From: a virus
IMG/VR virus record: IMGVR_UViG_3300032401_000010
Length of the DNA: 64,000 nt
Strand: one strand, 5' to 3'
Shown here: one piece after another, positions 8,954 through 59,470 of the stretch
Numbering within the stretch: the first letter of the stretch is position 1
Layout of the letters: each line of letters opens with the position of its first letter
Translations under genes and position numbers: made by a program
The notes under the pieces: generated by a model
What the model saw: the letters and a program-made list of their open reading frames with translations, nothing else
What the model was told of the DNA's origin: nothing
Database searches by the model: none

Positions 8954-10165
8954 TCAAATAGTTTCTTCTAGCTCAGACTGTATTTCTTTTAAAGTTGGAT
9001 CAACCGTCAAACATAATTGCAACATGGTTTTAGCTGCGTTTGCTGGAATTTTCCCAGCAACATTAAGATCGCCTAATGCAAACGTTTTTAAATCCGGAGT
9101 CTTATTCCTTTTTAATGCAAATAAAGCTCCAGGCCATAATTTTGTCATAGCCTCTAAAGCAAAATCTTTCATTATCAAATGATGTTTAAGGCTATCATAA
9201 TCAATTTGAGTACGACGAAAAACTTCAGCAATTATTGGTTTTAAACGCCTTATTCTATTTGCTATCATCTCAGGCATCATACCAATAATATCATCATCTT
9301 TTTCTAATAAGATAACCTCCACGCACCCTCTGTAGGAAGTAGATAAGCTGTCACGCATATGATTATATATGACATACAACGGACTCTTTACTTTAACTCT
9401 ATTGAAGTTGGCGTCCTTAATAACAACGCCTTCTTTTTCTTTTGGATCCCAGTCTTTTACGACTTGGATCATATGATTTATATTTTTAAAATGATATTTT
9501 TCTACCGCAGGAACCTTTAAATTTGCCGCCAAAACTTCTGGCGAATACTCAGTTAAAGTTTTGTTATCACGGACTGCTAATAATGTTATAGATAATTTCT
9601 TGTAATCACAAACTATTCTATTAAAAGGACTTGTTAATTCAAAACAGTATGTGCAATTCTTGTCTATCTGCAACATCCCTTGGTTTCCATAGTTCATTAA
9701 ATCTTGAATATCATTTCCAAGATTCATTTCTTTTACTGCTAAATCAAATAATTTAGCAAAGGTTATGTCGCTTTCATCTATATTGCCATCAGCCTCCGGC
9801 CTAGAACGAGTTCCTACACACCACCTATCTTGTTCAAGATCCCAGTAAGCAATGCACATCGTTCCGTCTAATTTGTCTTCAAAACAAGCTGTGCTCCAAT
9901 CTATCTCGGCTGCTGTTTCTTTTTGTTCTAGATTGAAAAATCTAAACATTGGACAAGCAACTATATCATACGTTCCTTCTCTTAGGATTAATCCTCTGCA
10001 TTGTTGCGAAAGCGGATCTTGCTCTCTTGCTTCAATTTGATCATATGTTAACCCTATTTTCCCATTATGAATATAAGATTTAACTCCATGTTCTATTTTT
10101 AGATCTTGAAGAGTTTTTCCGGAACGCAAATATTTTTGAACGTGTAGCATTATGTCAAATACCAA
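8954..10165 (-). CDS. RNA ligase 1 (T4 RnlA-like)
   Basis: Segments align by eye to T4 Rnl1: CRGLILREGTYDIVACPMFRFFNLEQ matches CRGIMFEMDG..RPMEKFFNLNE; the adenylyltransferase KxDG motif I is FEDKLDGTM (T4: LTKEDGSL); EGVVIKD...FNRVKVKSPLYV matches the T4 motif IV/V region. Confidence 0.75.
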   Translation of the reverse strand: MVFDIMLHVQKYLRSGKTLQDLKIEHGVKSYIHNGKIGLTYDQIEAREQDPLSQQCRGLILREGTYDIVACPMFRFFNLEQKETAAEIDWSTACFEDKLDGTMCIAYWDLEQDRWCVGTRSRPEADGNIDESDITFAKLFDLAVKEMNLGNDIQDLMNYGNQGMLQIDKNCTYCFELTSPFNRIVCDYKKLSITLLAVRDNKTLTEYSPEVLAANLKVPAVEKYHFKNINHMIQVVKDWDPKEKEGVVIKDANFNRVKVKSPLYVIYNHMRDSLSTSYRGCVEVILLEKDDDIIGMMPEMIANRIRRLKPIIAEVFRRTQIDYDSLKHHLIMKDFALEAMTKLWPGALFALKRNKTPDLKTFALGDLNVAGKIPANAAKTMLQLCLTVDPTLKEIQSELEETI

Positions 10166-10185
10166 GGTGATAGGTTTCTAATCGA

Positions 10186-10431
10186 CTATATTTTTACATC
10201 AAATATTTTAGATAACTTACTTAAATCAATTCTTTCAGGAAGATCTACTTTCATTTTTTCCTCAACATATGATTCAAAATCAAACACTTCGCCTTCTGTT
10301 CTTCTGCGGAATAATTCTTCCATACATTTAATAGCAAGATCTTTATTTGAATTAATTAATCTGTATGCTACAACATATGCCGCTAAAACTTTAGATGGCG
10401 CCGTTTTTATTTCATCATCATTATTTGTCAT
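10186..10431 (-). CDS. hypothetical small protein
   Basis: 81-aa ORF. Confidence 0.35.
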   Translation of the reverse strand: MTNNDDEIKTAPSKVLAAYVVAYRLINSNKDLAIKCMEELFRRRTEGEVFDFESYVEEKMKVDLPERIDLSKLSKIFDVKI

Positions 10432-10762
10432 TTTTATTCACTATAGCTATTAATTCTTTAAACGGTTTGAATCTTGGGAATATTTTCTTTTTATTATTAT
10501 TTACTTTTGGACTAGACATAAAGAATTTTCCTAATCCTCTTAACATCACTGTATTACTTTTTAACATTTGATTTCTTATTTCTTGAAAGAATAATTTGAT
10601 AATGATAGCTGAAGATTCTTCGTTAAGCCCAGTTGAAGCTTGAATTTTTGCTATTAATTCTTCTAACCCATCAGGAGTAACGGGAATATTGTCATCTACA
10701 GATTCTAAATATTCTGTAATTCCTGGTAGAAGATCTACTTCGTTTTCTTCAAAATCTGCCAT
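10421..10762 (-). CDS. hypothetical protein
   Basis: 113-aa ORF. Confidence 0.4.
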   Translation of the reverse strand: MADFEENEVDLLPGITEYLESVDDNIPVTPDGLEELIAKIQASTGLNEESSAIIIKLFFQEIRNQMLKSNTVMLRGLGKFFMSSPKVNNNKKKIFPRFKPFKELIAIVNKNDK

Positions 10763-10774
10763 ACTTCGTATATT

Positions 10775-11443: not shown

Positions 11444-12373
11444 ATGGATATCATAATTAAACGTGGTGAGATAGTAAATTTAGAAGATTTACCACCTTGG
11501 TCTATAGCCTTGGACGGATTTGTACAAGGCCCTAAAATTGATACAGAAAATCATCGCTATAGTTTTGATCACCATGCCGGTTGTCTTAGATATTGCACAA
11601 CTAGCGCTTGTATGCAGGCTTGGACAGCAGTGTTATTAGGATTGGACGCAGACAAATATACGATATATGCAAATGATGTAGATGGCGATGTTTGTGCTGC
11701 AATATGGTGTTTGAAAAATCCTGAAAAATGTAGCGACCCCAGAGCTACTAAATTAATTAATGCTATGGGCCTTGGTGATATGCACGGCGGAGCCTTTCCA
11801 AATAACGGGATGACAAAAACAATCGAATGGGTCTGCTCCCCAGAGACAGATTCCAAAAGAGATCAAGACTATTGGAAGCTTTCCGATAATGGCTTGAATT
11901 CCATTTTGGAAGCCGTGCTACATCGAATAGATACATACGTAGAAGGTGAAGCAAGCATAGAGGTTTCCAAACAGCCTAAGCACGGCGAATATAAAATTAT
12001 TCGAAACGAAAATAATTGGGTGTTGGTCGAATCTACAGACCCACATGCTTTTAGCGCAATCTATCAAGCCGGGTTTGATAGAATCGTTTTGGCAAGACCG
12101 CAAGATGATAATTCTATAGCTTATTCAATTGCCAAAAAAAGCGACTTCATAGATCGTTTTCCGTTAGAAATAATGTATAGCAAATTAAATGAACTGGAGC
12201 CTGGTTGGGGTGGCGGCAGCACAATTGGCGGAGCCCCAAGGAATCATGACGGCTCTAGAAGTAAATTAACTATGGAACAAGTAGCAGAAATTATAGATGC
12301 AATTGTGGCCGAAGAACATATATCAAAAACAAAATCATCGCTTCCGCCAGATAAGATTACTTTACAGACTTAG
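11444..12373 (+). CDS. hypothetical protein with DHH-like and GGG-rich motifs (possible phosphoesterase); the only confident plus-strand gene in this neighbourhood
   Basis: GGAGAA ribosome-binding site 8 nt before the ATG. Motifs FDHHAG, VDGDVCAA and GWGGGSTIGGAPRNHDG resemble DHH-family motifs but in non-canonical order. Confidence 0.45.
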   Translation: MDIIIKRGEIVNLEDLPPWSIALDGFVQGPKIDTENHRYSFDHHAGCLRYCTTSACMQAWTAVLLGLDADKYTIYANDVDGDVCAAIWCLKNPEKCSDPRATKLINAMGLGDMHGGAFPNNGMTKTIEWVCSPETDSKRDQDYWKLSDNGLNSILEAVLHRIDTYVEGEASIEVSKQPKHGEYKIIRNENNWVLVESTDPHAFSAIYQAGFDRIVLARPQDDNSIAYSIAKKSDFIDRFPLEIMYSKLNELEPGWGGGSTIGGAPRNHDGSRSKLTMEQVAEIIDAIVAEEHISKTKSSLPPDKITLQT

Positions 12374-13325: not shown

Positions 13326-14375
13326 TCATTTTGTCAAAAAACCTTCGCCATGAAGTTTTAATATTACTCGCCCAAGTTTATCATGTCTGCGCTCAAACAC
13401 AGGGCGAATAACCACGCCTTCTCGAACGTGTTTGTTATCTAATGTTGAACTGCCTTCAGCAAGCTCATAAGCTTTCTCTTTATTCCATGGCCCCATATAA
13501 AGAACAGGAGCTATAGGCAAATCAAGAGCGTTAGTTATAGAAATAAACTCATCAAAATCTACATACCTCCGAAGATTACGATCATATATATCAAATAATC
13601 TAAGACCAGCCTCACCGCGCTTGACACTATATGGAAAACCTCCGGTGTAACCACATGTCTCACCATAGATAACAATTTTTCTATTGTTAGCCGCCTGCCA
13701 TGACGCAAGCTTATTTTCTAAATTATAAAGCTCAGCGGCCTTGCCCCAGCCACCAATACCACTTTTCTTTACATTAGTTCTAGAACCAATCCATAAACGA
13801 TTATCTTCATAACAAAATCTTGCGTTTTCTCCATGAATCTTTTCGACCATAATTACTTCTTCGCCATCAACAAAAATATTTTTCCAGCGCCTTAATCCTT
13901 CAACATCAGTATACGTAGGCATGTAATGATAATCAGGCTCATTCAGTCTTGTGTCGCCAAAGTTATATCCCTCATCTGGTGGCGGCTCATATTTATCAAT
14001 ACCTAACTTTTCCCTAACGTCTTCGCCTTCAACCATGCCTTCGTCAGCATGAATAAGTAAACCCATGCTAAATACACCACGAAGGCGCCTAGCTTTAATC
14101 CTGCGATACTTTGCTGGTACTTGACCAATGGGAGGCGTAGGCTCTTTTATATTTCCTTCCTTGTCCTTTTTCGGAGGAGGAGCAAGGAAGTAGAATTTTT
14201 CATTATCTGGACATAAACTATCTACCGGAATATAAACAACTAAATCTCCAGGCTTAAATTCTCCAAGTCTAACGATAGCAGGATAGTCCGCTACCTTAGT
14301 AATACCTAAGGTGTCGGCATCGGGATGTTTCGTAATTTCCCCAATACGAACAACTTCTATATGAAATTCGGTCAT
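13326..14375 (-). CDS. RNA ligase with N-terminal tRNA-binding OB (Myf/EMAP-like) domain
   Basis: N-terminus IGEITKHPDADTLGITKV resembles the HP(D/N)ADKL tRNA-binding OB fold. The nucleotidyltransferase motif I is MVEKIHGENARFCY (KxHG(E/T)N, as in Rnl2, DraRnl and NgrRnl). Confidence 0.6.
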   Translation of the reverse strand: MTEFHIEVVRIGEITKHPDADTLGITKVADYPAIVRLGEFKPGDLVVYIPVDSLCPDNEKFYFLAPPPKKDKEGNIKEPTPPIGQVPAKYRRIKARRLRGVFSMGLLIHADEGMVEGEDVREKLGIDKYEPPPDEGYNFGDTRLNEPDYHYMPTYTDVEGLRRWKNIFVDGEEVIMVEKIHGENARFCYEDNRLWIGSRTNVKKSGIGGWGKAAELYNLENKLASWQAANNRKIVIYGETCGYTGGFPYSVKRGEAGLRLFDIYDRNLRRYVDFDEFISITNALDLPIAPVLYMGPWNKEKAYELAEGSSTLDNKHVREGVVIRPVFERRHDKLGRVILKLHGEGFLTK

Positions 14376-14391
14376 TTGTTTTTCTTTTTTG

Positions 14392-14463
14392 AGCTGGTGA
14401 AGGGATTTGAACCCCTGACCGGTAGCTTACAAAACTACTGCTCTACCCCTGAGCTACACCAGC
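14392..14463 (-). tRNA. tRNA-Thr (anticodon UGU); no encoded CCA
   Basis: Minus-strand sequence GCTGGTGTAGCTCAGGGGTAGAGCAGTAGTTTTGTAAGCTACCGGTCAGGGGTTCAAATCCCTTCACCAGCT folds as a cloverleaf: 7-bp acceptor stem, D arm GCTC/GAGC, anticodon stem GTAGT/GCTAC with loop TTTGTAA, and T arm AGGGG-TTCAAAT-CCCTT. Confidence 0.85.
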
Positions 14464-14499: not shown

Positions 14500-14841
14500 T
14501 CAACCCCCTCTTTTTCTTTCTATAAAATAATTTTCGTAATAGAATGCTAGTTCTTTACCAGAAATATATGTCTCTACAACATTTGCTGCTACAATAAATG
14601 GATCATCTTCCGCCCTTACTGTTCTATTGAACAACCAAATTAGCCGGTGCCTTCTGTCTTCTGGCAGATTAGTATCGGCCTCAAATTTTTCTATTAAGAA
14701 CAAACCGATACAATACAAATCAATTGTACGTTGGTTTGCTCTCCATTGAGGAGGTTGCCCCTCTCTCATTTTTGCTTCGAACCTTGCTTTATGAGGCTCA
14801 AGTTCAAGTAGTAATTGTTCTTTATTATACAAATTGACCAA
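14500..14841 (-). CDS. hypothetical protein
   Basis: 113-aa ORF. Confidence 0.4.
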   Translation of the reverse strand: MVNLYNKEQLLLELEPHKARFEAKMREGQPPQWRANQRTIDLYCIGLFLIEKFEADTNLPEDRRHRLIWLFNRTVRAEDDPFIVAANVVETYISGKELAFYYENYFIERKRGG

Positions 14842-15427
14842 GAATTATTTTAGCAAGAAATTTTGAATCTAACTTTTTAATTGCTTGCTCAATGATTGCA
14901 CCATGATCAAAAGCAATTTCTGAACATTCTGTAACATCACACCACGCAACTTCTTGTGCGTCATCTGCCGCTTTTGGATTAACACTATTTATATCAATTA
15001 CAGACGAGTACGCATGTGAAATGACTCGTCCTCTTGGATCTCTTTCAGGAGCATCAAACACTCCAACAAAAATATGAATTGCCCCAGCGCTGCGCTGTCC
15101 AGCACAAGCATATAGATCAATGCCAGTCTCTTCTAGCACTTCTCTAATAGAAGCATCACTAATAGTTTCATCCATATCCACAAATCCTCCAGGCAAAGCC
15201 CAGCAATTTTGAAAAGGTGGATTCTTTCTTTTTATTAATAATACTTTCAAACCATTGCCAGGCTCATCTAAACGTTTTTTTGTATCAATGCCAAATATCA
15301 CATGGTCTACGGTAACACTTGGTCTTGGAAAGTTGTAAGCGTAATACTTCTTTCCATCAATTTCAATTATCTTATCATCTGTTTGCGGCATTTTGTTTTT
15401 TCTTTCAGTAAATTGATCGTCTGTCAA
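14825..15427 (-). CDS. Nudix hydrolase
   Basis: Canonical Nudix box GGFVDMDETISDASIREVLEETGI (Gx5Ex7REVxEExGI). Confidence 0.75.
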   Translation of the reverse strand: MTDDQFTERKNKMPQTDDKIIEIDGKKYYAYNFPRPSVTVDHVIFGIDTKKRLDEPGNGLKVLLIKRKNPPFQNCWALPGGFVDMDETISDASIREVLEETGIDLYACAGQRSAGAIHIFVGVFDAPERDPRGRVISHAYSSVIDINSVNPKAADDAQEVAWCDVTECSEIAFDHGAIIEQAIKKLDSKFLAKIILGQFV

Positions 15428-15846: not shown

Positions 15847-16671
15847 TTAGTAAGCAACATTTAACTCTGGCTTCTTTGCTGTGCCTTGAACACGAATTAA
15901 TCTACCAAGACTTCCATCCTCTTCAAAGACTTGAGCCGTTAGAATACCAGTATCATACACAGCCGAGTCTAAATTGCAAGAAAATTTATAGAATTTCGCC
16001 TCGCCGTCTTTTTGAGCGGCATGACCAGAAGCAATATATCCAAAACGACCATCATATTTTTGATGCCACGAATCTCCGCCCTCTTTAGATTTAACTAAAG
16101 TGGATACTCCATTGATATCTTTCCAGATAAGAGGAATCATTCTACCATCTTCATCAACGTCTCTTACATAAACTACCTCAATATCTTTCTTGATATCGCC
16201 CCAGGTATGATGCGGAGTGACGCCAGCATGAACCACGGTAAGACGGGATCCGCTTTCAAACTGAAATGATAAAGCCAAAGGCTGGCGCCTCCACCAAATC
16301 AAAGCCTCACTCGGATCTTTCTTTGACTTCCGAATATGCTTAATTTCATGGTTGCCAGGGACGGCCCAGCCAACGCCACGCTTACGCAGAGTCATAAGCT
16401 CTTGCGTCATAGCCTCGGCTGTTTTCATACCAAAGCCTTTATCATATATGTCCCCTACTGATACAACCCACATTTTTCTGGAAGGATCAATCTCATTCAT
16501 CATCTTTTGAAATTGTTCTGGGTGCTCATGCACGTCTCCAAATACGGCAATTTTAGTGCCGTATGGAACTTCAATGTTGAGGTAATCCTCTGCTTTTGTT
16601 TCTGTTTTGCTCATTTTATTTCCTTCTTTTATGGTTATTTTTGTATAATGTTGATGAAAAAAATAGCTCAA
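15847..16671 (-). CDS. calcineurin-like metallophosphoesterase (lambda-phosphatase/PrpA-like); candidate RNA end-healing phosphatase
   Basis: Motifs VFGDVHEHPEQF (GDxHG-like), GDIYDKG (GDxxDRG) and GNHE. Confidence 0.7.
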   Translation of the reverse strand: MSYFFHQHYTKITIKEGNKMSKTETKAEDYLNIEVPYGTKIAVFGDVHEHPEQFQKMMNEIDPSRKMWVVSVGDIYDKGFGMKTAEAMTQELMTLRKRGVGWAVPGNHEIKHIRKSKKDPSEALIWWRRQPLALSFQFESGSRLTVVHAGVTPHHTWGDIKKDIEVVYVRDVDEDGRMIPLIWKDINGVSTLVKSKEGGDSWHQKYDGRFGYIASGHAAQKDGEAKFYKFSCNLDSAVYDTGILTAQVFEEDGSLGRLIRVQGTAKKPELNVAY

Positions 16672-21854: not shown

Positions 21855-22598
21855 TCAAATTTTTAGTATATGTGGTTTGCCGTCATGACCAATAGCAGCG
21901 TTACTAAAGGTTGTGCTACCTATGGAAAGCACACCATTACTAGGGTGAGCATGACCACACAGATACAATTTGAGTGGATTAGTAAGTTGATATGTTATAG
22001 TAGAGTTAATAAATGGATTGCCGATATGCTGTTCTTTTTTGGCATCATATGTATCAAGAATTCCATCTGGTGGACAATGTGCCACGAGAATATCAAGTCT
22101 ATCAAACATTTTAGCATCCTTAAGTCTTCGCAGAAATGTATTTACTTCTTTGCGAAGTTCATCAGGAGTACATTCAAAATTCCAGCAGTTTCGAATTTTC
22201 GGAACATATGGAAATCCGTACCATACGAAACCTTTATATTCAACTACTTTATTATCTAAATCAATAGCTTCTATCCCATTGTCATTCAAAATCTGACATG
22301 GATTTAGAAAATCATGATTGCCGGAACTCCAAATGAACGGCTTGCCTTTTATCCATTCTTTAATTGCTTTTATATTTGTGAGAAGCCATATCTTTTGGAA
22401 TTCTATCTCAGCTTTTCTTTTAGCGGCGGTTCGATTTGGTTCTAGCTCAATGCCGCGTTTTCCAAATGATTCACTTTTGTTATAAGCAAAAAAGTCTCCA
22501 GAACACACAACTACATCAAACTCCCCTGGGAGATCTATTAGCTGTCCATGGCAATCTGAAATGTGACATATAAGCATAATGTTATTGTAATCATTCAA
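21855..22598 (-). CDS. calcineurin-like metallophosphoesterase (second copy)
   Basis: Motifs ICHISDCHGQ, GDFF, GNHDF and GHAHP. The track starts it at a TTG codon that sits inside a 20-bp tandem repeat. Confidence 0.65.
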   Translation of the reverse strand: MNDYNNIMLICHISDCHGQLIDLPGEFDVVVCSGDFFAYNKSESFGKRGIELEPNRTAAKRKAEIEFQKIWLLTNIKAIKEWIKGKPFIWSSGNHDFLNPCQILNDNGIEAIDLDNKVVEYKGFVWYGFPYVPKIRNCWNFECTPDELRKEVNTFLRRLKDAKMFDRLDILVAHCPPDGILDTYDAKKEQHIGNPFINSTITYQLTNPLKLYLCGHAHPSNGVLSIGSTTFSNAAIGHDGKPHILKI

Positions 22599-26037: not shown

Positions 26038-27936
26038 TTAAATCATGCCCAGAAATTGTTGCTCAGAAATAAGGGTTGTTCCAAACTTTCTTGCCGCATC
26101 AGCTTTCGAAGAAGTGCTATTGGGATCGGCAATTACAAGATAATGCAATCCTTTGCCTACACTCTTTTTTACTGAACCACCAGCATCTTCAACCATTTTC
26201 TGAAGCGCTGGCCTTGGCTTTTCCATTGAACCAGTAAAACAAAAACTTTTCCCGGTAAGCTTGCCCTTGACTCGCGGTTTAATAGTAACGCCCGCAGCCA
26301 AGATATCTTCTATGCGCTTCTTATTCGTTTTAAGACCGTTTACGAGAGCCTTGGCCCGAATGCTGCCAAAGCCGCCGAGGCTCGCCAAACGGCCCTCAGT
26401 AAGCACTAGCATGGCATCCAGAGTATCATAGCCAGCCTCAACAACAACCTTGGTGGTTGAAGTGCCTACACCATTAATTCCTAGCCCGCCGATTAAGTTC
26501 TCAAGCGAAATTTTTCGATGCCCATTAAGAACATCAATTAGCTTTTGTGCAGAACGTTCTCCCATTCTGTCAAGCTTCTCAAGCTGTACTGCTGTCAACC
26601 TATATAGATCGCCAACATCTTTGACAAGTCCGGCATCAATAGTCTTTTGAAGAATACTCTCGCCCCACTCAAGAATATTCTGTTCGTTGATCCATGTCTT
26701 GAGCCTTCCAATTACTTGGGCTGGACAAGTTTCTTTATTTGTACAACGAAGATATTCTCCATTAAACTCAGTTGGAGAATTACACTCAGGACACTTCTTC
26801 GGCGGCTTATGAACAGAGTCGGTGCCTTTAATAAGTTCTTCAACCCTTGGAATTACATCATTGGCTCGAATGATCAATACTTCAGAACCAACATCAATAC
26901 CAAGTTCTTTAACATAAGAATAATTATAGCAACTAGCTCGCTTAACCTTTGCTCCAAGCAAGTTCACTTCATCGAACTCTGCTACTGGAGTAATAGTCCC
27001 AGTGTTACCAACTTGATCTACGAACCTAATAATCTTTGATGTTGCACTTGGAGCTTCAAACTTAAAAGCGATAGCTCCCTTTGGACGATGATTTTTATCG
27101 CCCAAAGCAAATTGGACAGACATATTATCAACGCGAATAACTACACCGTCGATATCATAATCAAGCGAGTCACGAATTGAACTTTGATATTTATTATATT
27201 GACTAATAACTTCTCGCACTTCTCTATAAACGGCAGAAACAGGAACGTTAAAACCAGTTTTGTTCAGCCATTTAAATTGTTCGCCCTCAGTGTCGAAATC
27301 TTTACCGTTAACAGTATACATCATAACGGTAAGATGCTCAACGCCAATTCCATCAAGTCTTTTTGCTATACCAGATGCTGCATTTCTAGGATTAGCATAC
27401 TCGGGAAAATATTTCTTATTGTCAGACTTCAATAGAATAATTTCACCGCGCACACTTCCTGTAAAGGATTCATTAAGCTTTTGTGGAATGCCTTTCATTC
27501 TAGCAACGTTAGCAGTAATATCCTCGCCTATGTTACCGTCACCACGAGTAACTGCCTGAACGAGCTTTCCTTTTTCCCAAATGGTATTAATTGAAATACC
27601 ATCCAGCTTTTCAGTAAAGAAAATGCCGGAATTTAAATTACGAGAACTTAGGCCTGTACCAGAAGGTGACTGCTGCTCACACTCCTTGGCCCAGGCTTTA
27701 AATTCGTCCTCTGTATTAACTTTATTAAGCGAACCCATTGGAACAGAATGAGAAGCCTTCTTCCATTCAGAAACAACAGGAGCGCCAACGGATGTTACAG
27801 CTGTGTGGTTCGGATCAAGTTTCGAAAGCTCATCAACCCAAGCATCAAAGATAGCATCCGAAACTGTTGGCCCGACATTGTAGTAGTCATGGCGAGCTTT
27901 AACAATTTTATATGCTAGCTCTTTGATTTTAGACAC
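26038..27936 (-). CDS. ligA: NAD+-dependent DNA ligase (LigA)
   Basis: Ia domain at the N-terminus (YKIVKARHDYYNVGPTVSDAIFDAWVDEL), adenylation motif KLDGISI, Cys4 Zn finger (CPECNSP...C...CPAQ), HhH region and a C-terminal BRCT-like tail. Confidence 0.85.
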   Translation of the reverse strand: MSKIKELAYKIVKARHDYYNVGPTVSDAIFDAWVDELSKLDPNHTAVTSVGAPVVSEWKKASHSVPMGSLNKVNTEDEFKAWAKECEQQSPSGTGLSSRNLNSGIFFTEKLDGISINTIWEKGKLVQAVTRGDGNIGEDITANVARMKGIPQKLNESFTGSVRGEIILLKSDNKKYFPEYANPRNAASGIAKRLDGIGVEHLTVMMYTVNGKDFDTEGEQFKWLNKTGFNVPVSAVYREVREVISQYNKYQSSIRDSLDYDIDGVVIRVDNMSVQFALGDKNHRPKGAIAFKFEAPSATSKIIRFVDQVGNTGTITPVAEFDEVNLLGAKVKRASCYNYSYVKELGIDVGSEVLIIRANDVIPRVEELIKGTDSVHKPPKKCPECNSPTEFNGEYLRCTNKETCPAQVIGRLKTWINEQNILEWGESILQKTIDAGLVKDVGDLYRLTAVQLEKLDRMGERSAQKLIDVLNGHRKISLENLIGGLGINGVGTSTTKVVVEAGYDTLDAMLVLTEGRLASLGGFGSIRAKALVNGLKTNKKRIEDILAAGVTIKPRVKGKLTGKSFCFTGSMEKPRPALQKMVEDAGGSVKKSVGKGLHYLVIADPNSTSSKADAARKFGTTLISEQQFLGMI

Positions 27937-32928: not shown

Positions 32929-33126
32929 TCAATTTCCGTAAAGGGCTTCAGATATTTTATCTATTAAATCTCGTTCAACATTAGATATTTTCCAATAAGG
33001 CTTATCCATTTGATCTCTAATAACATCGGCTTCATGTTCGTCACCTCTTCCTGTCGCCATAAGAACATTAAGATCTAATAACAATCTCAGATATTTTTCA
33101 AATGGTTTATTCATTTTCGTCCTCAA
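32929..33126 (-). CDS. hypothetical small protein
   Basis: 65-aa ORF. Confidence 0.3.
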   Translation of the reverse strand: MRTKMNKPFEKYLRLLLDLNVLMATGRGDEHEADVIRDQMDKPYWKISNVERDLIDKISEALYGN

Positions 33127-45003: not shown

Positions 45004-45774
45004 TCAATAGCCAAAAGCTTTTAATTCTTCATCAGATATAGGAATTGGTATGCGATCAGATCTTCCTACAGTTCCTTCTTTAATTGGAATAGCTTTAAGT
45101 TTGATTCCCAAAAATTCTGATAATTTATTTAATGTATCTTCTTGATGAAGAACAAAATCTTCGAATTTAATATGAATAAAATTCTTTGGCTTGGGAGTTG
45201 CTGCTACTATTTTCATTTGATACAGCCAGCTTTCTACCCTTCGTTTTAATATATTTGGTTCGTAACTTAATTTTGTACGCACATTAAACGAAAAAATATT
45301 ATCAGTAAGATGAGCTTTTAATAAAGCGTCCCGTGGATCCCTAGTCCAATGTATATAATAAGCATCAGGAAACATTTGCGTAATCCAAGGATAACATAAA
45401 TTAGTTTCCGGTAATTTCCATCCACGATCCCCATTATGAGTTAATATATTAAGAAGATATTTATTTACTAAAATTTTAAATAAGATTGTTGGCTCTTCTT
45501 TAATTAACTTAGAGAAGTTCCAATCATTAATACATATAGATTTTACATAGGCGCCAGCAATTCTAGCAGCGTGATACATATGCCTTGCAGGAACTAAATC
45601 CCCTGAATCATTTGTGGTGCCCATATAAACACCACTCTCAGATAGAGTTTGACTTATGGCTCTAGTGCCGCCATGCCCTCTTCCAATTACTATTATTAGT
45701 TTCAAGTCTTTATTAAAATAGTTATATAGAAGATTTGTTATTTTCAGAAGGCTTGTTGCTTTCGAAAAATTCAT
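45004..45774 (-). CDS. hypothetical protein (weak P-loop/sulfotransferase-like GRGHGGT motif)
   Basis: 256-aa ORF. Confidence 0.4.
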   Translation of the reverse strand: MNFSKATSLLKITNLLYNYFNKDLKLIIVIGRGHGGTRAISQTLSESGVYMGTTNDSGDLVPARHMYHAARIAGAYVKSICINDWNFSKLIKEEPTILFKILVNKYLLNILTHNGDRGWKLPETNLCYPWITQMFPDAYYIHWTRDPRDALLKAHLTDNIFSFNVRTKLSYEPNILKRRVESWLYQMKIVAATPKPKNFIHIKFEDFVLHQEDTLNKLSEFLGIKLKAIPIKEGTVGRSDRIPIPISDEELKAFGY

Positions 45775-46003
45775 ATAGACGCTCTACTTCGTTTAACGCA
45801 GCATTCAATACTGTAAAATGGCCCTTCGAATATAAAGCATATAACGCACTAAAAATTCCTACAGGCCCACTGTCAATATATTGTCTTGGATCTTTAGCTC
45901 TAATATTTTCCATACGTTTACGAAAACCTTCAATCATTTCTTTTGTTATAGGAGAGAATTGAGATTTTGGATCTGGTTTATAAACAGTCGTTATTTTTTC
46001 CAA
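45722..46003 (-). CDS. hypothetical small protein
   Basis: 93-aa ORF. Confidence 0.35.
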   Translation of the reverse strand: MEKITTVYKPDPKSQFSPITKEMIEGFRKRMENIRAKDPRQYIDSGPVGIFSALYALYSKGHFTVLNAALNEVERLYEFFESNKPSENNKSSI

Positions 46004-46572
46004 GGGATTGCATCTCTCATGTTGTAATCATAAATGAATACATCTTTGGTAATACATTTCTGTATAAGCTTTTCAATTTCTTCCCAGCTTCCTCCAGCAA
46101 GCCCGCATCCGAATCTTGGAGCGACCATTGTAGCATTAAGCTTAATCAAATAAACATTTAGTTTATTGAGACAGCTTTCTACAGCCTCATATCTAATTGG
46201 AGGTTGATATTGATACTGATCTGATTCGCCATGTTGGAGACGATTGCTACTTCCGTAACCAACTTGTCCAATCATGTTGGCTACCCAAACGCCAGAAATT
46301 CTTTTAATAGGGTCACTTATAAATTCCTGCTCTGTAAATCCAGCCTCAACAACATTTATTAGCTGAATGTTTCCAAGAGCGAATGGATCAATTTGAGCTT
46401 TGTATTGTCCTTTATACCAAGAGCGATATGCTTTTTCTGGCTCGGACCATTTTTTTGATACTGCTATAACAAACCCAGCGCCCCAACCACCGGCATCATT
46501 ACAGACATGAGCAATGATTTTATTTCCTTCCCCAACAGGTTCTGTGGCATCACCTTCTAAGTAGTGGATCAT
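45991..46572 (-). CDS. macro-domain-like protein (ADP-ribose binding/processing)
   Basis: IIAHVCNDAGGWGAGFVIAV resembles the macro NAAN...GGGV motif. The start was placed at the internal Met (MIHYLEG), because the track's N-terminal extension is encoded by the adjacent GC-rich island. Confidence 0.4.
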   Translation of the reverse strand: MIHYLEGDATEPVGEGNKIIAHVCNDAGGWGAGFVIAVSKKWSEPEKAYRSWYKGQYKAQIDPFALGNIQLINVVEAGFTEQEFISDPIKRISGVWVANMIGQVGYGSSNRLQHGESDQYQYQPPIRYEAVESCLNKLNVYLIKLNATMVAPRFGCGLAGGSWEEIEKLIQKCITKDVFIYDYNMRDAIPWKK

Positions 46573-48327: not shown

Positions 48328-48543
48328 AACAATGTCAATATATTCACTAAGTCAAAAACTAGGAAAAATTAATTTGGCTGGCACTTCAGGTACATAATCT
48401 GTTGGGAGCACACCGGTACCGTCGCATACGCCACAAGTTTCGCATGGATGACAGTCGCCAACATGCCAGCCACGCCCTTTGCACTAATGACACCGTACCT
48501 TATTTGCTTGATCCTTATGCTCGTCCATCACACATTCTCCGTG

Positions 48544-48635
48544 TCTCAAGTTCTGGAGTTGAACCAGAATCTCCCGGCCTATGGTCCGTACCGAAGTGCG
48601 TAGCACCGGAGTTCTACCGATTGAACTAACTTGAG
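48544..48635 (-). ncRNA. tRNA-like structured RNA (canonical acceptor, D and T arms; non-canonical anticodon/variable region)
   Basis: Minus strand: CTCAAGT-TA-GTTC-AATCGGTA-GAAC ... TCTGG-TTCAACT-CCAGA-ACTTGAG-A. The 41-nt central segment has no clean 5-bp/7-nt anticodon arm. Locally GC-rich and free of ORFs. Confidence 0.4.
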
Positions 48636-48712
48636 GGGTTTGAATCACCTCTATTATGGATCTTCTGGCCGAGGATTAAGTTTCGATATTAACATCTAAC
48701 TTTAGTTAACTA

Positions 48713-48919
48713 TTATTTGGCAGCCTTGTTCCTCTTTTTTAGGTAAGGAGCATGACCCTCCGCTGGCTTCCGAGCTTCCTTCTTACCCTTAAGCCACGCC
48801 TTGACCTTATCGGTCTCATCATGCTGTTTAGCCCACTGTTTTAGAGAAAACCTCTCAGCGGGCTTGCCAGCAAGATACTTTTTGTACGTAGCCCTAAGAT
48901 TGTTAGCAATAATACTCAT
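48713..48919 (-). CDS. hypothetical small basic protein
   Basis: 68-aa Lys-rich ORF. Confidence 0.35.
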   Translation of the reverse strand: MSIIANNLRATYKKYLAGKPAERFSLKQWAKQHDETDKVKAWLKGKKEARKPAEGHAPYLKKRNKAAK

Positions 48920-48975
48920 TTGTTTTCTATTTAACTCCGGTTATCTCAAGTTTGGTATCTGATAGTTCTGGCTCT

Positions 48976-54020: not shown

Positions 54021-54674
54021 CTAATCCTTAGTAAACAAAAAAGCTTTTACTTTATATCCGCAAGCATCTGAAATCATCATAAAATCTTCTATAGAAACAT
54101 CTCCTCTATTCTTTTCTGACCTTTCTACAATTATAGCAGCGTCAATAATGGAACAGTTTCTTTGCGCTGCTACCCTATCAACTAGCTGTCCTTGCGTTAA
54201 CCCAGCTAATAGTCTAACACATTTAACTGGGGTGTCAAGGTCTAAATGAGCCTCACCTAGAAGACGCTCGGTCGTGGGTGTTACAATTTTTGTCGTGGGC
54301 GTTACAATTGTTTTATATTCCGTTTCATATAGTTGTGCTTTATAATAAAATTCTTCTGATGAATAACCTATCCATTTATCTCGCCGTTTGATAATTTCGG
54401 TCCCTATTTCTTCTAGGGTGCCAACAATATCGTCCCCTCCATTTTCTGTACACCATGCAATATGATGTGAGCGAATGCCATAAAGATTTATATCAGGTCC
54501 GCAATCTACCCATGGATTAACATCTGGTGAAAGATGAAGTCCGCTTTTTTCACAACTCAATATAATTTCTGCATGCTCATCACAGCAAGCAAAGATAGCA
54601 CGAGTTAGAAGTCTTTTGGTAGCCGGTTTACCACATAGAGTTAGTTCGCCAGGCCCGCTACAAATGGTTTTCAT
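54021..54674 (-). CDS. putative transcriptional regulator with C-terminal HTH (XRE-like)
   Basis: HTH segment VRLLAGLTQGQLVDRVAAQRNCSIIDAAIIVERSEKN, plus an internal TIVTPTTKIVTPTT repeat. Confidence 0.45.
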   Translation of the reverse strand: MKTICSGPGELTLCGKPATKRLLTRAIFACCDEHAEIILSCEKSGLHLSPDVNPWVDCGPDINLYGIRSHHIAWCTENGGDDIVGTLEEIGTEIIKRRDKWIGYSSEEFYYKAQLYETEYKTIVTPTTKIVTPTTERLLGEAHLDLDTPVKCVRLLAGLTQGQLVDRVAAQRNCSIIDAAIIVERSEKNRGDVSIEDFMMISDACGYKVKAFLFTKD

Positions 54675-55075
54675 TTTACCTCAGCAATACTGTGTTCAGC
54701 TTTTTTTACGGCATCAGTTACCGCATTGATAGAATTTATTAGCTTTTCTTCCTCTTCGGACAATATTGGGACAATGAATCCATTAGGAAGCTCACCAGTT
54801 TGAAATTGACGTGGGATCTTAGCAGCATAAGAGCTGCCAATACCTGGAAAGAACACAATAATTTTTTCTGCTCTACCATTTTCGAATTCTTCTTTGAACT
54901 TTGAAAGCCTCTCCATTACCCTTTCATAACTCTCTTTGTCCATAGTGACCCCAAGAGAATCCGGCGGAATAGGTTCTGGCTCACCGACAATCGCTAGACG
55001 AACCGGCTGTCCACCAATAATGAACCGATATACAGTTCCTTCTTCTGTTGTGTTTAGCTTTGACATTATTCCCAA
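54671..55075 (-). CDS. hypothetical protein
   Basis: 134-aa ORF. Confidence 0.4.
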   Translation of the reverse strand: MGIMSKLNTTEEGTVYRFIIGGQPVRLAIVGEPEPIPPDSLGVTMDKESYERVMERLSKFKEEFENGRAEKIIVFFPGIGSSYAAKIPRQFQTGELPNGFIVPILSEEEEKLINSINAVTDAVKKAEHSIAEVK

Positions 55076-56156: not shown

Positions 56157-57332
56157 TTAAAAACAATTCCACATTTGACCAGTCGTAGGATAATAGAACC
56201 CGAAGATGTTACACATTTCATCCTTGGTAGTATCACCAAACGTCACGGTATTGTTTAGATCATTCTGATACTCACACTCGAAAGAAACATTTTCTCCCGG
56301 CATAACCTTAAGATAACCAGTCTTAGCTCCCCAATCTTGCCCAGCAGCTAAAGGCAAAATTGGATTTGAAGTGCCGTCCCTAAACATTGCCTCGCCCGGC
56401 TCATGCCAATTATGCGTTTCATAAACAAGCTCATCCTGATGCCATAATGAAAGCCTCTGTAAACGCCTATGAGCATGACCAGTAACTAATCCAAGATAAA
56501 CTGGGTCTGTAGTTGATGGAGACTTGCATGTTACACGAGGAGTTACGTAATGAGCTAAAGAAGGAATGTTAATGTTTGGATTGTAAAACCCAATCAAATC
56601 AATCTTAACTTTAACTTCAGAAGGATCTACATATTTAATTACGGCCCAAGCTTCTCGAAGAATTGGTTGATCAGATGTATTTACATAATGCAAATCCATA
56701 AGCATGGTTTGCTCTGCTGGTAAATCATGAGCAGCGCCATAATCAGGATCGCCCGGTTGTGAAGGATCTCCACCGCCAGTAAGAGCCTCTACATCAATCT
56801 GAGGAGACTGAGAACCAAACACCCAACGATCAATTGGATTTGGTGGACAAACATAAGGTTTTGCTTCTGGTTGATAAGAAGCTTTCGGCATTGTTACAAT
56901 CCAATGATGAGAACTTGGACGCATCCTGCCATGATACGAATTATAATATTCGGGATCTATATTGGTTGTATTAGCATGAATGCAGAACTCTTCTTCGCCT
57001 CCTGGCGCTAATATATAAGGAGCGAGAGCATCAGGATCATCATAACTACTTGGGCCGAAATGAATTAGCTGACCTACTGATGGATCTGGTTTACAGAGAG
57101 CTGACTCATCGCCAGAATATCCAGTGCTGGCTTTGCAAAGAATTGCCCCAAATGAATCTACACAACGAGCAGGTTGTTTAGATATGTCGTTACCGCATGG
57201 AGGATCTACTTTATCTCCTACTACGCCGGTTCCAGCTTCATCACTTCCGTCATTAACGTTATTAGTGTTAACGACCGAGTTGTTATTACAAGCCATTAAT
57301 AAGAAACAAATAGATGTTAATATTTTTTTCAT
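56157..57332 (-). CDS. putative secreted lipoprotein
   Basis: Lipobox MKKILTSICFLLMAC, and several His-rich segments (HAHRRLQRLSLWHQDE). Confidence 0.45.
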   Translation of the reverse strand: MKKILTSICFLLMACNNNSVVNTNNVNDGSDEAGTGVVGDKVDPPCGNDISKQPARCVDSFGAILCKASTGYSGDESALCKPDPSVGQLIHFGPSSYDDPDALAPYILAPGGEEEFCIHANTTNIDPEYYNSYHGRMRPSSHHWIVTMPKASYQPEAKPYVCPPNPIDRWVFGSQSPQIDVEALTGGGDPSQPGDPDYGAAHDLPAEQTMLMDLHYVNTSDQPILREAWAVIKYVDPSEVKVKIDLIGFYNPNINIPSLAHYVTPRVTCKSPSTTDPVYLGLVTGHAHRRLQRLSLWHQDELVYETHNWHEPGEAMFRDGTSNPILPLAAGQDWGAKTGYLKVMPGENVSFECEYQNDLNNTVTFGDTTKDEMCNIFGFYYPTTGQMWNCF

Positions 57333-57442
57333 TATACCTTTTATATAAATTGTTAACGATTCTCGACTGTTATATATTTATAGTTTTATAGAAACTATGT
57401 TAAAATAATAGTGGTGCAGATAATTGATTGCACCTTTCAGTT

Positions 57443-57934
57443 TTATTCAGTTTGTATCAAGTCCTTTAATCTTCTTTGTAAGGATGAGATGTCTTGCTGA
57501 ATTCTCAACAACTCTTCTTCTTTATTAATATCATTTCGTTTCGCCCAATTAGAATCTTCTTGATTATAATTTTCTAATTGTTCTTGTTCATTTTGTTTTT
57601 TAACATGAACAACTTCTATATTTAAATAGTCATTTGAAAAAGACGCAGTAAAGAATACATCTTTCTCATCAAAGTTATATTCCTTAATCAAGGCGTTAAT
57701 ATCTTTAAGACAAATGCAATTATTATCACCTAAACTTCCGATATATTCTGGACAATTTTCAGGTTCTTCTTCTTCCCATTCGTAAAAATTATTACCTGTG
57801 CTATAACCAGGCCAATGATTAACACGATCTCTAGCGGCAGTTATATTTTCAATCCGAAATTCGTAAGCCCCTGAACCAATCACTGGAGGCCTATCATGCC
57901 AGGTTCTTTCTCGCCTAAGCTTTAGCTTTTTCAT
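57443..57934 (-). CDS. hypothetical protein
   Basis: 163-aa ORF. Confidence 0.4.
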   Translation of the reverse strand: MKKLKLRRERTWHDRPPVIGSGAYEFRIENITAARDRVNHWPGYSTGNNFYEWEEEEPENCPEYIGSLGDNNCICLKDINALIKEYNFDEKDVFFTASFSNDYLNIEVVHVKKQNEQEQLENYNQEDSNWAKRNDINKEEELLRIQQDISSLQRRLKDLIQTE

Positions 57935-58143
57935 TATTTGTTAAACCATACAACATGAGTATATGTTTGATCTATGTTTGGTAGATCTATTTGTTCGTCA
58001 GTCATCTCTGACGATGTAGCATAATAGCCATTGCCATCATAACCATTATAACTACCAGATCGCACTGCTTTAGAAAACTCTTCCAAGGTCATGTGTTCCC
58101 CGTAATCAGGTATTGGTTCCATCCGTCTCGGCTTACTGAGCAA
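57934..58143 (-). CDS. hypothetical small protein
   Basis: 69-aa ORF. Confidence 0.3.
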   Translation of the reverse strand: MLSKPRRMEPIPDYGEHMTLEEFSKAVRSGSYNGYDGNGYYATSSEMTDEQIDLPNIDQTYTHVVWFNK

Positions 58144-59470
58144 TCGATTTAACCTTTTCCTGATACCATTTCCTAGCAGCTTCCATAACTGGCCTATTTA
58201 CTTTAGCCCAGTCAAGATTAGAAGCTTCAAGTTCAGCTCCGCTTTCCTTCTGCACGTCAGCCGTAATCCACTTTAAGAAGGCGCCTGTGAGCTTGGCATC
58301 ATACTGTCCGTTACATGCCGTAGTAACTGCCTGCTCAAGCCTTGCAGGAGTAACGAACATATCTACGAATTCATTAACGCTAGCAGCTACTTCAGGATCA
58401 ATCTGAACTGCCGCCTTCTGCTTGACTACCTTATGCTGTTCTCCTTTAGCTTTAAAAAACAGATCGTAATAATCAGAACGCATTATTACATTTGTATCAT
58501 CTTTTTTCAAAGGATATAAAACAATGCCTTCCCCGATCCCCTCTACATGGAAAACAGATTTAACCCAAGGATCACAAGCCTCAACTTTAGCCACCATCTC
58601 ATTTAGATTCTCGGCAGCCTTGCGCAACTGTTCAGTGTCTGCGAAATCTAAAACAATTTCTTCACCATACCAAGGAAGAACATATAGGTCAAGGTTAGGC
58701 AGAGAGGTGTGATCAATTAATAAATCAGCGATTGTTTTTGGCTCAGCATAATACCTGGACGTATTATCAGAGTTACCACATTGAATTGCAAACACTGCTA
58801 GAATCTTCTTGCCAATATTATTGATAGCTGTACCCTGTTGTATTGATTCTCCGCACCATTCTCCAAATACAGTTACTATTTCGTCCTTAACCATTTTCTT
58901 GAAGAAAGCCGTATTATTATCCACCCATTTAGCAAACCCAGCATTATCATTCTCTGGAGTAATAATACTGGTTCTGCTCTGAGCAAATACTTTCCCGTCA
59001 GGATGGATCTGAACAGCAGCATTCGTTCCATGCAATTTAATCTTAGCTTTGTATGTAACCGAAGGAAGTTTGTAAGACTCGCCAAGATTAGAACGAAGAT
59101 CCCCTAATCCTTTACGAACCCCAACTAACCCTTCAATCTGTGGCCAATAATGCATGCTAGCGCCAGAAGTATTCAAATCTTCTTTACAATACTCAGCAGT
59201 AACATCTGTACCAACGTCAGCTTCAGATTTACCTAATGCCATACCATACGAATGAAGTCCGCGAACCTTGGTAGAAGAAATTTTGGTTCCGTCCTTAAGT
59301 GTAGAACCACTAAGAACTATAACAACCTTATCATCAACTTCATAGATGTTCTCAAGGTTGGCTACGATTTGATTTGTTTCAAAACCTTCTGCTTCCATTT
59401 CGTATAAACGCAAAGCGTCTGCAAAAGGATGTTTCTCGGCCTTGATTACTTTCATTACTACAGCGGTCAT
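58133..59470 (-). CDS. RNA ligase with N-terminal tRNA-binding OB domain (NgrRnl/DraRnl-like)
   Basis: N-terminus VIKAEKHPFADALRLYE (tRNA-binding OB signature) and motif I KIKLHGTNAAV (KxHGTN). Confidence 0.65.
   Translation of the reverse strand: MTAVVMKVIKAEKHPFADALRLYEMEAEGFETNQIVANLENIYEVDDKVVIVLSGSTLKDGTKISSTKVRGLHSYGMALGKSEADVGTDVTAEYCKEDLNTSGASMHYWPQIEGLVGVRKGLGDLRSNLGESYKLPSVTYKAKIKLHGTNAAVQIHPDGKVFAQSRTSIITPENDNAGFAKWVDNNTAFFKKMVKDEIVTVFGEWCGESIQQGTAINNIGKKILAVFAIQCGNSDNTSRYYAEPKTIADLLIDHTSLPNLDLYVLPWYGEEIVLDFADTEQLRKAAENLNEMVAKVEACDPWVKSVFHVEGIGEGIVLYPLKKDDTNVIMRSDYYDLFFKAKGEQHKVVKQKAAVQIDPEVAASVNEFVDMFVTPARLEQAVTTACNGQYDAKLTGAFLKWITADVQKESGAELEASNLDWAKVNRPVMEAARKWYQEKVKSIAQ

Follow-up and report, generated by a model that had tools for sequence, protein, structure and literature searches.

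A 64-kb stretch of DNA from an uncultured huge phage (IMG/VR record IMGVR_UViG_3300032401_000010) carries five genes for ATP-dependent RNA ligases, each of a different lineage, together with one gene for a Thg1-like protein (TLP) of bacterial type. The whole stretch analysed is called the window here; the genome it comes from is much larger. The six enzymes, encoded between positions 8,954 and 59,470, probably serve RNA and tRNA repair as a counter-defence against tRNA cleavage by the host or by competitors, a role that can reasonably be inferred from the established enzymology of their families. An initial annotation had placed the genes at the coordinates given below, where all were found, on the minus strand, and its family assignments were borne out by searches of Pfam, PHROG and PDB and by fold comparison. 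The core genes are as follows:

8954..10165, minus strand: Rnl1-family RNA ligase (Rnl1like), 403 aa, motif I KLDGT, PF09511 RNA_lig_T4_1
13326..14375, minus strand: Rnl5-family ligase of the DraRnl/NgrRnl type (OBlig1), 349 aa, motif I KIHGEN, PF21189 and PF09414
24168..24986, minus strand: Thg1-like protein (TLP), 3'-5' nucleotidyltransferase family, 272 aa, PF04446
43687..44349, minus strand: RNA-ligase-family protein consisting of a nucleotidyltransferase (NTase) domain only (small1), 220 aa, motifs KIDGSN, FGEW, EGVVVR and KLVR, PF09414
55066..55719, minus strand: second NTase-only RNA-ligase-family protein (small2), 217 aa, motifs KYDGTN, MEYHG, EGVVCKG and KIK, PF09414
58133..59470, minus strand: tRNA_bind-Rnl2 hybrid ligase (OBlig2), 445 aa, motif I KLHGTN, PF01588 and PF09414

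Membership of the nucleotidyltransferase superfamily was judged from the lysine of motif I (KxDG or KxHG), an acidic residue in motif III, EGxxxK/R in motif IV, and KxK or K..R in motif V. Motifs I, III, IV and V are legible in the translations of all five ligases, and they are invariant in the family alignments built for small1, small2 and OBlig2. The initial count of five RNA-ligase-family genes thus stands, each being an ATP-dependent superfamily member with its motifs intact.

Rnl1like matches its Pfam family at 1.6e-17 (64.5 bits against a cut-off of 28.3) and PHROG 562, named 'RNA ligase and tail fiber attachment catalyst', at 4.8e-40 over profile positions 48-351 of 377. The T4 Rnl1 structure 2c5u is matched at 1.4e-8, the alignment ending at T4 residue 277, and the protein is distant from T4 RnlA, scoring 54 bits on TIGR02308, where the equivalog cut-off is 242. 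OBlig1 consists of the PHA02142 OB domain PF21189 (aa 8-107, 1.9e-12) and the RNA_ligase domain PF09414 (aa 172-341 of 349, 1.6e-23), and residues 10-324 align to residues 12-318 of NgrRnl (5cot, 3.8e-11). It has the architecture of Rnl5, in which an N-terminal OB domain leads into the NTase domain and a C-terminal appendage is lacking.

OBlig2 begins with a tRNA_bind domain (PF01588, aa 4-89, 8.8e-10; 39 bits against a cut-off of 27) of the PheRS-beta B2/EMAP-like kind, which matches PheRS-beta at 3.2e-6 with the single sequence and at 1.1e-9 with the family profile, and which also matches the tRNA-binding protein 3bu2 and the appended domains of TyrRS and MetRS. Residues ~131-441 form a complete Rnl2 body, that is, the NTase domain (PF09414, 2.4e-11) plus the Rnl2 C-terminal domain. 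Residues 134-441 align with positions 27-340 of 341 in PHROG 548 (1.8e-49), and the family profile aligns with residues 30-301 of T4 Rnl2 (2hvq, 3e-6). The protein is not an Rnl2 equivalog, with 22.6 bits on TIGR02307 against a cut-off of 197. The N-terminal domains of OBlig1 and OBlig2 are homologous by profile-profile comparison (hhalign probability 96.8%, E 2.5e-10, 83 columns) and have the elements HPxADxL, GD and KLRGxxSxG in common, while BLASTP between the two OB domains found no similarity. OBlig2 therefore combines the signature N-terminal domain of Rnl5 with the signature C-terminal domain of Rnl2. The presence of a tRNA-binding type of OB domain in two of the ligases, as first annotated, is supported by the PF01588 match in one and by this homology in the other.

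For small1, the first of the NTase-only proteins, the assignment comes from PF09414 (2e-23) and PHROG 24030 (1.4e-46), and for small2 the Pfam score lies under the gathering score (4e-5; 24.2 bits against 27), the assignment being rescued by PHROG 548 (4.2e-7), by homologues that bear PF09414, and by the AF2 model; its motif residues are unchanged across 30 homologues. The AF2 models are both confident, with pLDDT values of 89.9 (small1) and 89.2 (small2). In Foldseek searches the best solved structures for both are T4 Rnl2, NgrRnl and archaeal Rnl3 (E 1e-7 to 1e-5). T4 Rnl2 heads the list for each (4.8e-7 for small1, followed by NgrRnl, Rnl3 and fungal Trl1-LIG; 9.1e-8 for small2, which also matches T4 Rnl1). 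DNA ligases come at 1e-4 to 1e-3 against the two models (5e-4 or worse for small1), and capping enzymes are absent from the top 50 structure matches of either. The possibility that these KxDG proteins might be DNA ligases or capping enzymes was thus answered in favor of RNA ligases. With TM-scores of only ~0.5-0.6, the models indicate that both are divergent members of the superfamily. An Rnl2-type C-terminal domain is absent from both; the AF2 models comprise the NTase fold alone and the PHROG 548 matches of the small proteins are limited to the NTase part. They are not to be classed as Rnl2. No conserved partner genes, as might be expected of a heterodimeric ligase, were found beside small1 or small2. 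The ORFs downstream of them, 43177-43659 and 54671-55075, were considered as partners and rejected, having no family matches and not being kept in a syntenic contig of 419,687 bp (GCA_902731095.1 CACVHU010000001.1; the 419.7-kb contig below, of which 48-84 kb was compared).

The Thg1-like protein matches PF04446 at 5.4e-28 (98 bits against a cut-off of 29.2) and PHROG 4717 at 1.5e-56. Its best match in PDB is the TLP of Bacillus thuringiensis (4kgk, 4.5e-31), aligned over the full length; human THG1 follows at 1.3e-12. The catalytic carboxylates, on which the first assignment to this family hinged, are retained in alignments to 4kgk and 3otb: the Asp of xDGxxF (vDGknF) and the Asp-Glu of SDE(it). 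By these comparisons the protein is a bacterial-type TLP. Enzymes of the TLP class extend 5'-truncated tRNAs in the 3'-5' direction in vitro, using the 3' strand as template, and the alignments favor this templated activity over that of the Thg1 type, which adds G-1. It resembles the bacterial TLPs in its full-length alignment and its carboxylates, and differs from them in being phage-encoded, with a predicted activity.

Cleavage of tRNA is emerging as one of the most frequent effects of bacterial immune systems (PrrC, RloC, PARIS, retrons, OLD, Cas12a3 and VapC-type toxins), and accounts of how large phages escape it are mostly conjecture. The phage has probably gathered its five evolutionarily separate ligases and its TLP over time, and the enzymes would share out the labor of mending broken tRNA, or other RNA, during infection. 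Breaks in single-stranded loops, for instance that of the anticodon, would be resealed by Rnl1like; OBlig1 and OBlig2 would close 3'-OH/5'-PO4 nicks where the strands pair in stems, their OB domain anchoring them on the tRNA; acceptor stems truncated at the 5' end would be restored by the TLP on the template of the 3' strand; and small1 and small2 may act on pre-activated (adenylylated) ends or together with a partner. The purpose would most likely be the undoing of tRNA-cleaving defenses of hosts or competitors, and jumbo-phage repair sets have been interpreted in the same way, as counter-defense against tRNA cleavage, in PMC7824862 and PMC9503650. The division of substrates follows that given by Unciuleac and Shuman (PMC4408790), in which Rnl1 and Rnl4 act on loops and Rnl2 and Rnl5 on duplex nicks, and Rnl5 seals 3'-OH/5'-PO4 duplex nicks that have an RNA 3'-OH strand.

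Several observations weigh against this repair role. The six core genes make up 5.7 kb of a 50.5-kb span and are dispersed among genes for rIIA/B, LigA, NadE, a kinase, a transglycosylase, AAA+ proteins and many ORFs without assignment, and promoter- and terminator-like sites lie between them. Given this dispersal and the intervening genes and sites, co-regulation is not indicated, and there is neither an operon nor a cluster, the genes being spread over 51 kb among unrelated ones. No PNK, HAD, HD, 2H or RtcB family was found by Pfam or PHROG among the ~85 ORFs of the window, and genes for KptA and RlaP were likewise not found in its 64 kb, so that a complete heal-and-seal pathway is not visible in it. 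T4 Rnl1 moonlights in tail-fiber attachment, as the name of PHROG 562 records. Even model systems have yet to reveal what Rnl2 and Rnl5 act on in vivo, and the isolated NTase domains of these two families keep step 3 of the reaction and not full nick sealing (both PMC4408790); since an isolated NTase domain cannot seal ordinary nicks, small1 and small2 may be no conventional ligases.

The same scattering of genes would be expected if they formed no functional unit at all and had been acquired individually, some of them of cyanobacterial type, for unrelated or redundant roles. Profile-profile comparison among the families of small1, small2 and OBlig2 found similarity of motif size only, from which it follows that each of the five genes represents a lineage acquired on its own rather than the outcome of a recent expansion by duplication, which agrees with such piecemeal accretion. 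Roles outside RNA repair can be named as well: tail-fiber attachment for the Rnl1-family protein, a function of gp63 recorded in the PHROG 562 annotation; action on RNA-primed DNA nicks for the Rnl5 and Rnl2 types, Rnl5 sealing nicks with RNA only in the 3'-OH strand and a role in DNA repair having been suggested for it (PMC4408790); and adenylyltransferase activity for the NTase-only proteins. OBlig2 and small2, moreover, have chromosomal homologues of ~50% identity in cyanobacteria, in ordinary contexts.

The distribution of the lineages argues in the other direction. Among 50,697 deposited phage records, homologues were found in 462 for Rnl1like, 204 for the Rnl2 body of OBlig2, 203 for the Rnl5 protein OBlig1, 161 for the Thg1-like protein, 28 for small1 and four for small2. 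The two NTase-only proteins are nearly confined to very large phages: none of the 28 records of small1 is a genome under 143 kb and most exceed 230 kb, and those of small2 are LR756511.1, LR745206.1, LR756502.1 and Xanthomonas phage XacN1. This confinement points to selection rather than chance. The lineages also recur together in the distant huge phages LR756511.1, LR745206.1, LR756508.1 and XacN1. The first of these, whose GenBank record is unannotated, was searched over its entire 595,163 bp with all ORFs of the window and with the family HMMs. Four of the five ligase lineages are present there along with Thg1, with identities of 29% (Rnl1like), 29% (Rnl5), 35% (small2), 26% (small1) and 33% (Thg1); a tRNA_bind-Rnl2 member was not detected by this search. 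Its repair genes are dispersed across ~470 kb, it also codes for rIIA/B, a Ser/Thr kinase (45% identity) and NadE homologues, and the proteins that it shares with the window are 26-53% identical.

Gene neighborhoods elsewhere likewise favor RNA repair over unrelated roles. In an unrelated phage-like element (loci L013 and L014), an Rnl5 gene of 36% identity is flanked by genes for RlaP and a CCA-adding enzyme, and in L013 a Nudix hydrolase 40% identical to that of the window lies 0.7 kb from the Rnl5 gene. One cyanobacterial homologue of OBlig2 has a Macro gene on one side and a NADAR gene on the other, and a second stands beside a PIN-domain toxin pair. Taken with the evidence on its side, accretion without a shared function appears unlikely. 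The L013/L014 loci themselves (L013 280-4085 on contig WOR8_10015924; L014 4589-11017 on Ga0209742_10000339) hold a compact RNA-repair cluster of CCA-adding enzyme (HD domain), RlaP nucleotidyltransferase, Rnl5 ligase and Nudix hydrolase.

The tRNA_bind-Rnl2 architecture is common outside deposited phages, with more than 3000 metagenomic and genomic homologues, those in filamentous cyanobacteria reaching ~50% identity. Of the 204 phage records with a match to the ligase body, none aligns with the first 35 residues of OBlig2, and Acidovorax phage ACP17 alone reaches residue 36. The chromosomal homologues of small2, at ~50% identity, are in Nostoc, Kamptonema and related cyanobacteria.

Three further features adjoin core genes:

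8139-8939: HNH-like gene directly downstream of Rnl1like, with a match to PHROG 2340 'endonuclease' (8e-6) and an HNH-like C-terminal motif seen by eye
14391..14463, minus strand: tRNA-Thr(UGU), predicted by ARAGORN; 69 bits with the Rfam tRNA model
59607-60101: HNH gene immediately upstream of OBlig2, with Pfam HNH and HNH_5 matches

LR756511.1 has two homologues of the HNH gene at 59607-60101, which the 419.7-kb contig also keeps, and a 517-aa homologue of OBlig2 (P0051) holds RNA_ligase and HNH_5 domains in one protein. HNH endonucleases are associated with Rnl2 in jumbo phages, and the HNH-Rnl2 fusions described by Iyer et al. (PMC7824862) are echoed by this protein and by the adjacency of HNH and ligase genes in the window.

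The tRNA-Thr gene precedes the Rnl5 gene by 15-16 nt, with a promoter-like site at 14503-14476 upstream of the tRNA in turn. Its adjacency to a ligase gene had been reported correctly at the outset, the distance of 17 nt less so. The same phage from a different sample (L008) keeps the tRNA. This arrangement bears on the possibility that the ligases and the TLP mature RNAs of the phage itself rather than mend damage, for example by adding G-1 to a phage tRNA-His, joining tRNA pieces or insert-bearing tRNAs, circularizing RNA, or priming and processing transcripts. Such a role would draw on the tRNA placed next to the Rnl5 gene behind a promoter-like site; on the eukaryotic Thg1 enzymes, which add G-1 to tRNA-His (cited in PMC7824862); on the label 'ATP-dependent RNA circularization protein' given to a small1 homologue in one source; and on a tRNA-like element of 93 nt at 48543-48635, with ~20 extra nt in its middle. 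Each of the first two is met by a contrary observation. At the locus of an 83%-identical OBlig1 homologue (L012) the tRNA-Thr is absent upstream, which weakens any functional tie between it and the Rnl5 gene. ARAGORN found no tRNA-His in the window, and the TLP is nearer to the bacterial enzyme than to the G-1-adding Thg1 (E-values as above). The tRNA-like element fails the Rfam tRNA model at E<=1, and a splicing endonuclease was not found. Maturation of the phage's own RNAs is accordingly judged quite improbable.

The element itself was called by ARAGORN as a tRNA-Arg(ACG) on the minus strand, inside a non-coding gap of 650 nt (48328-48975). Its 7-bp acceptor stem is perfect and its D and T arms are normal, the extra nucleotides lying in the anticodon/variable region, and the fold z-score is -2.0. 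A degenerate tRNA, a tRNA carrying a long insert and a tRNA-like element are all possible readings. The equivalent of the gap in the 419.7-kb contig (L006 5427-7201, between the gene for a 761-aa AAA+ protein and a p307 homologue) holds a gene similar to ribosomal protein bL12, three small ORFs and a SpoU-type RNA methyltransferase. The same contig has a tRNA-Leu(UAA) near small2, which the window lacks.

Four further enzymes had been grouped with the ligases as parts of an RNA end-repair toolkit:

14825..15427, minus strand: Nudix hydrolase, PF00293 NUDIX (4.7e-17)
15847..16671, minus strand: metallophosphoesterase MPE1, PF00149 Metallophos (3.1e-12), with PPP-like motifs GDVHEH, GDIYDKG and GNHE
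21855..22598, minus strand: MPPED2-like metallophosphoesterase MPE2, PF00149 (4.9e-12), PHROG 1649
26038..27936, minus strand: NAD-dependent DNA ligase LigA, with Adenylation, OB, Zn-finger, HhH and BRCT domains all present

The question is whether, in place of a missing Pnkp, the Nudix hydrolase, both metallophosphoesterases and LigA heal and seal RNA ends with the ligases as one integrated pathway. As the initial annotation had it, a P-loop polynucleotide kinase is not to be seen: Walker A motifs occur in the window only in two AAA+ ATPases, and no 5'-kinase of any kind was found there. The phosphatase most suited to healing is MPE1, which has motifs of PPP type and a match at E 0.03 to 4j6o, presumably the phosphatase domain of Clostridium thermocellum Pnkp. 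This match and that to ApaH (0.04) are weak and non-significant (PDB matches E 0.03-0.05), so that MPE1 is weakly a candidate for 3'-end healing. Calcineurin-like phosphatases have been proposed as healing enzymes in a few jumbo phages (PMC7824862), and the proximity of Nudix and Rnl5 genes recurs in L013, leaving open a repair link for the Nudix enzyme.

The family assignments of the four proteins speak against a joint pathway. The best NCBIfam matches of the Nudix hydrolase are NtrR and NMNAT-Nudix, and its PDB matches are 2qjt and 2qjo (NadM-Nudix) and 3gz5; it groups with the clade of ADP-ribose pyrophosphatase, NadM-Nudix and NrtR, and not with RppH or NudC. MPE2 matches MPPED2 (3rl4, 8.2e-7) and nothing specific to RNA ends. 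MPE1 resembles NinI/lambda protein phosphatase (PHROG 246, NinI-like phosphatase, 1.6e-10) and ApaH as well, and a gene for a Ser/Thr kinase lies not far from it. LigA serves replication and repair as a DNA ligase and stands outside any RNA toolkit. On present evidence none of the four should be counted as an RNA end-repair enzyme, and several of them probably belong elsewhere; an integrated pathway built on them is very unlikely. With no kinase and only a weak phosphatase candidate, healing for the proposed tRNA repair would depend on genes in another part of the genome or on the host, or would be unneeded where breaks leave 3'-OH and 5'-P ends.

The kinase in question is a 566-aa protein (31225-32925) with a domain of eukaryotic protein kinase type (PF00069, 31 bits, slightly under cut-off), which a protein of LR756511.1 matches from end to end at 45% identity; MPE1, by its similarity to NinI/lambda phosphatase, could be its opposing phosphatase. 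The Nudix hydrolase probably belongs, on its matches, to a module for NAD and ADP-ribose, its link to repair being uncertain. Other genes of its region are those for a glutamine-dependent NAD synthetase, NadE (34809-36734, CN_hydrolase and NAD_synthase domains); for a weakly isochorismatase-like protein (40195-40989), 53% identical in LR756511.1 and possibly a nicotinamidase; and for a protein at 45991-46572 that matches PHROG 335 'phosphatase' (1.6e-28). The last was considered as a Macro domain and left unassigned, having no Pfam match and no BLASTP match to a cyanobacterial Macro protein. Together with the Nudix enzyme and LigA, these three make up a possible NAD/ADP-ribose module, which may counter NAD depletion by the host. 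Enzymes of NAD and ADP-ribose metabolism are another known theme of jumbo phages (PMC7824862 and PMC9503650).

A bolder proposal is that the hybrid and the two NTase-only proteins are new functional classes of RNA ligase, which with Rnl1like, OBlig1 and the TLP would make up a tRNA-mending system specialized by break position. The hybrid may then be a tRNA-docking nick sealer, and the NTase-only proteins may be minimal ligases that act on pre-adenylylated ends or depend on a partner. As a more speculative extension, the tRNA-like element at 48543-48635 would be a substrate that needs ligation by the phage to mature. No biochemical characterization of the tRNA_bind-Rnl2, small1 or small2 families was found in the literature, and the proposal is put forward as a doubtful one. 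If true, tRNAs broken in the loop, the stem or at the 5' end would all be mended, and huge phages so equipped would have near-universal resistance to tRNA-targeting immunity.

Apart from that proposal, a single genome offers representatives of five ligase lineages and a polymerase for 5'-end repair. Stand-alone NTase domains have been proposed as the ancestral form of ligases. The set bears on the activity of such domains, on OB-directed sealing of tRNA nicks, and on multiplicity of ligases as specialization by break position. The stockpiling of RNA-repair enzymes by jumbo phages is already published, and the value of the window lies in a well-defined test set and not in the principle; work at the bench would be most worthwhile on the hybrid and on the pair of minimal ligases.

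The window falls within the non-structural region of the phage genome. It has a G+C content of ~37%, nearly all genes are on the minus strand, many ORFs have no family assignment in Pfam or PHROG, and virion genes are absent from its 64 kb, so that its phage origin is inferred from rIIA/B and from its relatives. It encodes rIIA, rIIB, NAD-dependent LigA, the glutamine-dependent NAD synthetase, a GT51 transglycosylase-domain protein and the Ser/Thr-kinase-like protein. Megablast of 44 kb of the window against the same 50,697 phage records gave no match, and the window therefore has no close cultured or deposited relative. IMG/VR scans with OBlig2, OBlig1 and Thg1 as queries returned no matches, and a single scan of JGI metagenomes with OBlig1 returned only one 2-kb contig and one distant phage. 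At least 23 contigs of several ENA and JGI metagenomes encode the exact Thg1-like protein of the window, in an identical gene order. The window is syntenic with the 419.7-kb contig, in the compared part of which OBlig2, small2 and small1 are each 71% identical and in the same order. This recurrence of the exact protein, the gene order and the relatives across metagenomes and contigs identifies the source as a real, recurrent environmental huge phage.

Other genes of the window include some that are unusual in a phage. The 569-aa protein encoded at 33107-34816 has a GT51 peptidoglycan glycosyltransferase domain (PF00912 Transgly, 3e-48) of the synthetic, PBP type and not of the lytic transglycosylase type; its gene lies beside NadE, an arrangement kept in the 419.7-kb contig. 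A protein with the C-terminal domain of copper type II ascorbate-dependent monooxygenases (56157-57332; kept in the 419.7-kb contig at 76-86% identity) and a sulfotransferase-family protein (45004-45774) are odd phage cargo. Two gene pairs of cellular type are found at 861-3329 and 5184-8134, the first coding for an SPFH/Band-7 protein and a YqiJ/NfeD-like membrane protein, the second for a MoxR-like AAA+ ATPase and a DUF2201 metallopeptidase/VWA protein. The only sizeable ORF on the opposite strand (11444-12373, plus strand, 309 aa, without a Pfam or PHROG match) adjoins a stretch at 12-14 kb where G+C climbs locally from 33% to 43%, and may be a recent insertion.

Among known systems, the closest are the RNA-repair repertoires of jumbo phages (Iyer et al. 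2021; PMC7824862), which combine RtcB, Rnl1 and Rnl2 in any combination. BcepSaruman and BcepSauron have RtcB with Rnl1 and Rnl2, XacN1 has three paralogues of the Rnl2 family, Thg1 is sporadic in jumbo phages of groups 2 and 3, where it is assigned to 5'-end restoration, and calcineurin-like phosphatases, Nudix and Macro enzymes accompany the repair systems. Iyer et al. (2022) extend the scheme to repair that depends on NAD and ADP-ribose (PMC9503650). The window shares with these repertoires its multiple non-redundant ligases, Thg1, HNH, NAD/ADP-ribose enzymes and phosphatases. It differs in that five ATP-dependent lineages within 51 kb exceed every example quoted from PMC7824862, that RtcB, RlaP, PNK-HAD, 2H and KptA are not seen in its 64 kb, and that the excerpted parts of PMC7824862 make no mention of a tRNA_bind-Rnl2 hybrid.

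With the classical pair of T4 Rnl1 and Pnkp acting against PrrC, the window shares an Rnl1-family ligase and the logic of reversing tRNA cleavage. It differs in lacking Pnkp (neither the kinase nor the HAD phosphatase is present), in the distance of its Rnl1-family protein from that of T4, and in four further ligases and a TLP that have no counterpart in T4 except for Rnl2. OBlig1 has the signature architecture of the Rnl5 family (Deinococcus DraRnl and Naegleria NgrRnl; PMC4408790, PMC7261155) and aligns end to end with NgrRnl, although its score on TIGR02306 (3.2e-36; 124.9 bits) is under the NCBIfam equivalog cut-off of 151; the homology of its N-terminal domain to tRNA_bind OB domains is added here. 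OBlig2 resembles the T4 Rnl2 family in its NTase and C-terminal domains, over T4 residues 30-301, and departs from it in the extra N-terminal tRNA_bind domain (aa 4-89), which is not a feature of that family. A precedent for many ligases in one genome is provided by Naegleria gruberi, whose 15 RNA ligases (Rnl1, Rnl2 and Rnl5 paralogues) are regarded as a rich RNA-repair menu (PMC4408790); that is a eukaryotic cell with paralogues within families, whereas the virus has one member of each of five lineages.

The set had first been suggested to be a broad counter-defense or else an RNA-processing pathway new to phages; its novelty is overtaken by the combinations of RNA ligases, Thg1 and NAD/ADP-ribose enzymes already described in PMC7824862 and PMC9503650 and by the four lineages plus Thg1 of LR756511.1. 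Multi-ligase arsenals for RNA repair have already been described for jumbo phages, and the window adds to them an uncommonly rich case, not a system of a new kind. Five is the highest number of distinct ATP-dependent ligase lineages documented here for one phage, compared with three in the quoted literature and four in LR756511.1, and what the window adds to these repertoires is an uncharacterized tRNA_bind-Rnl2 hybrid in a phage.

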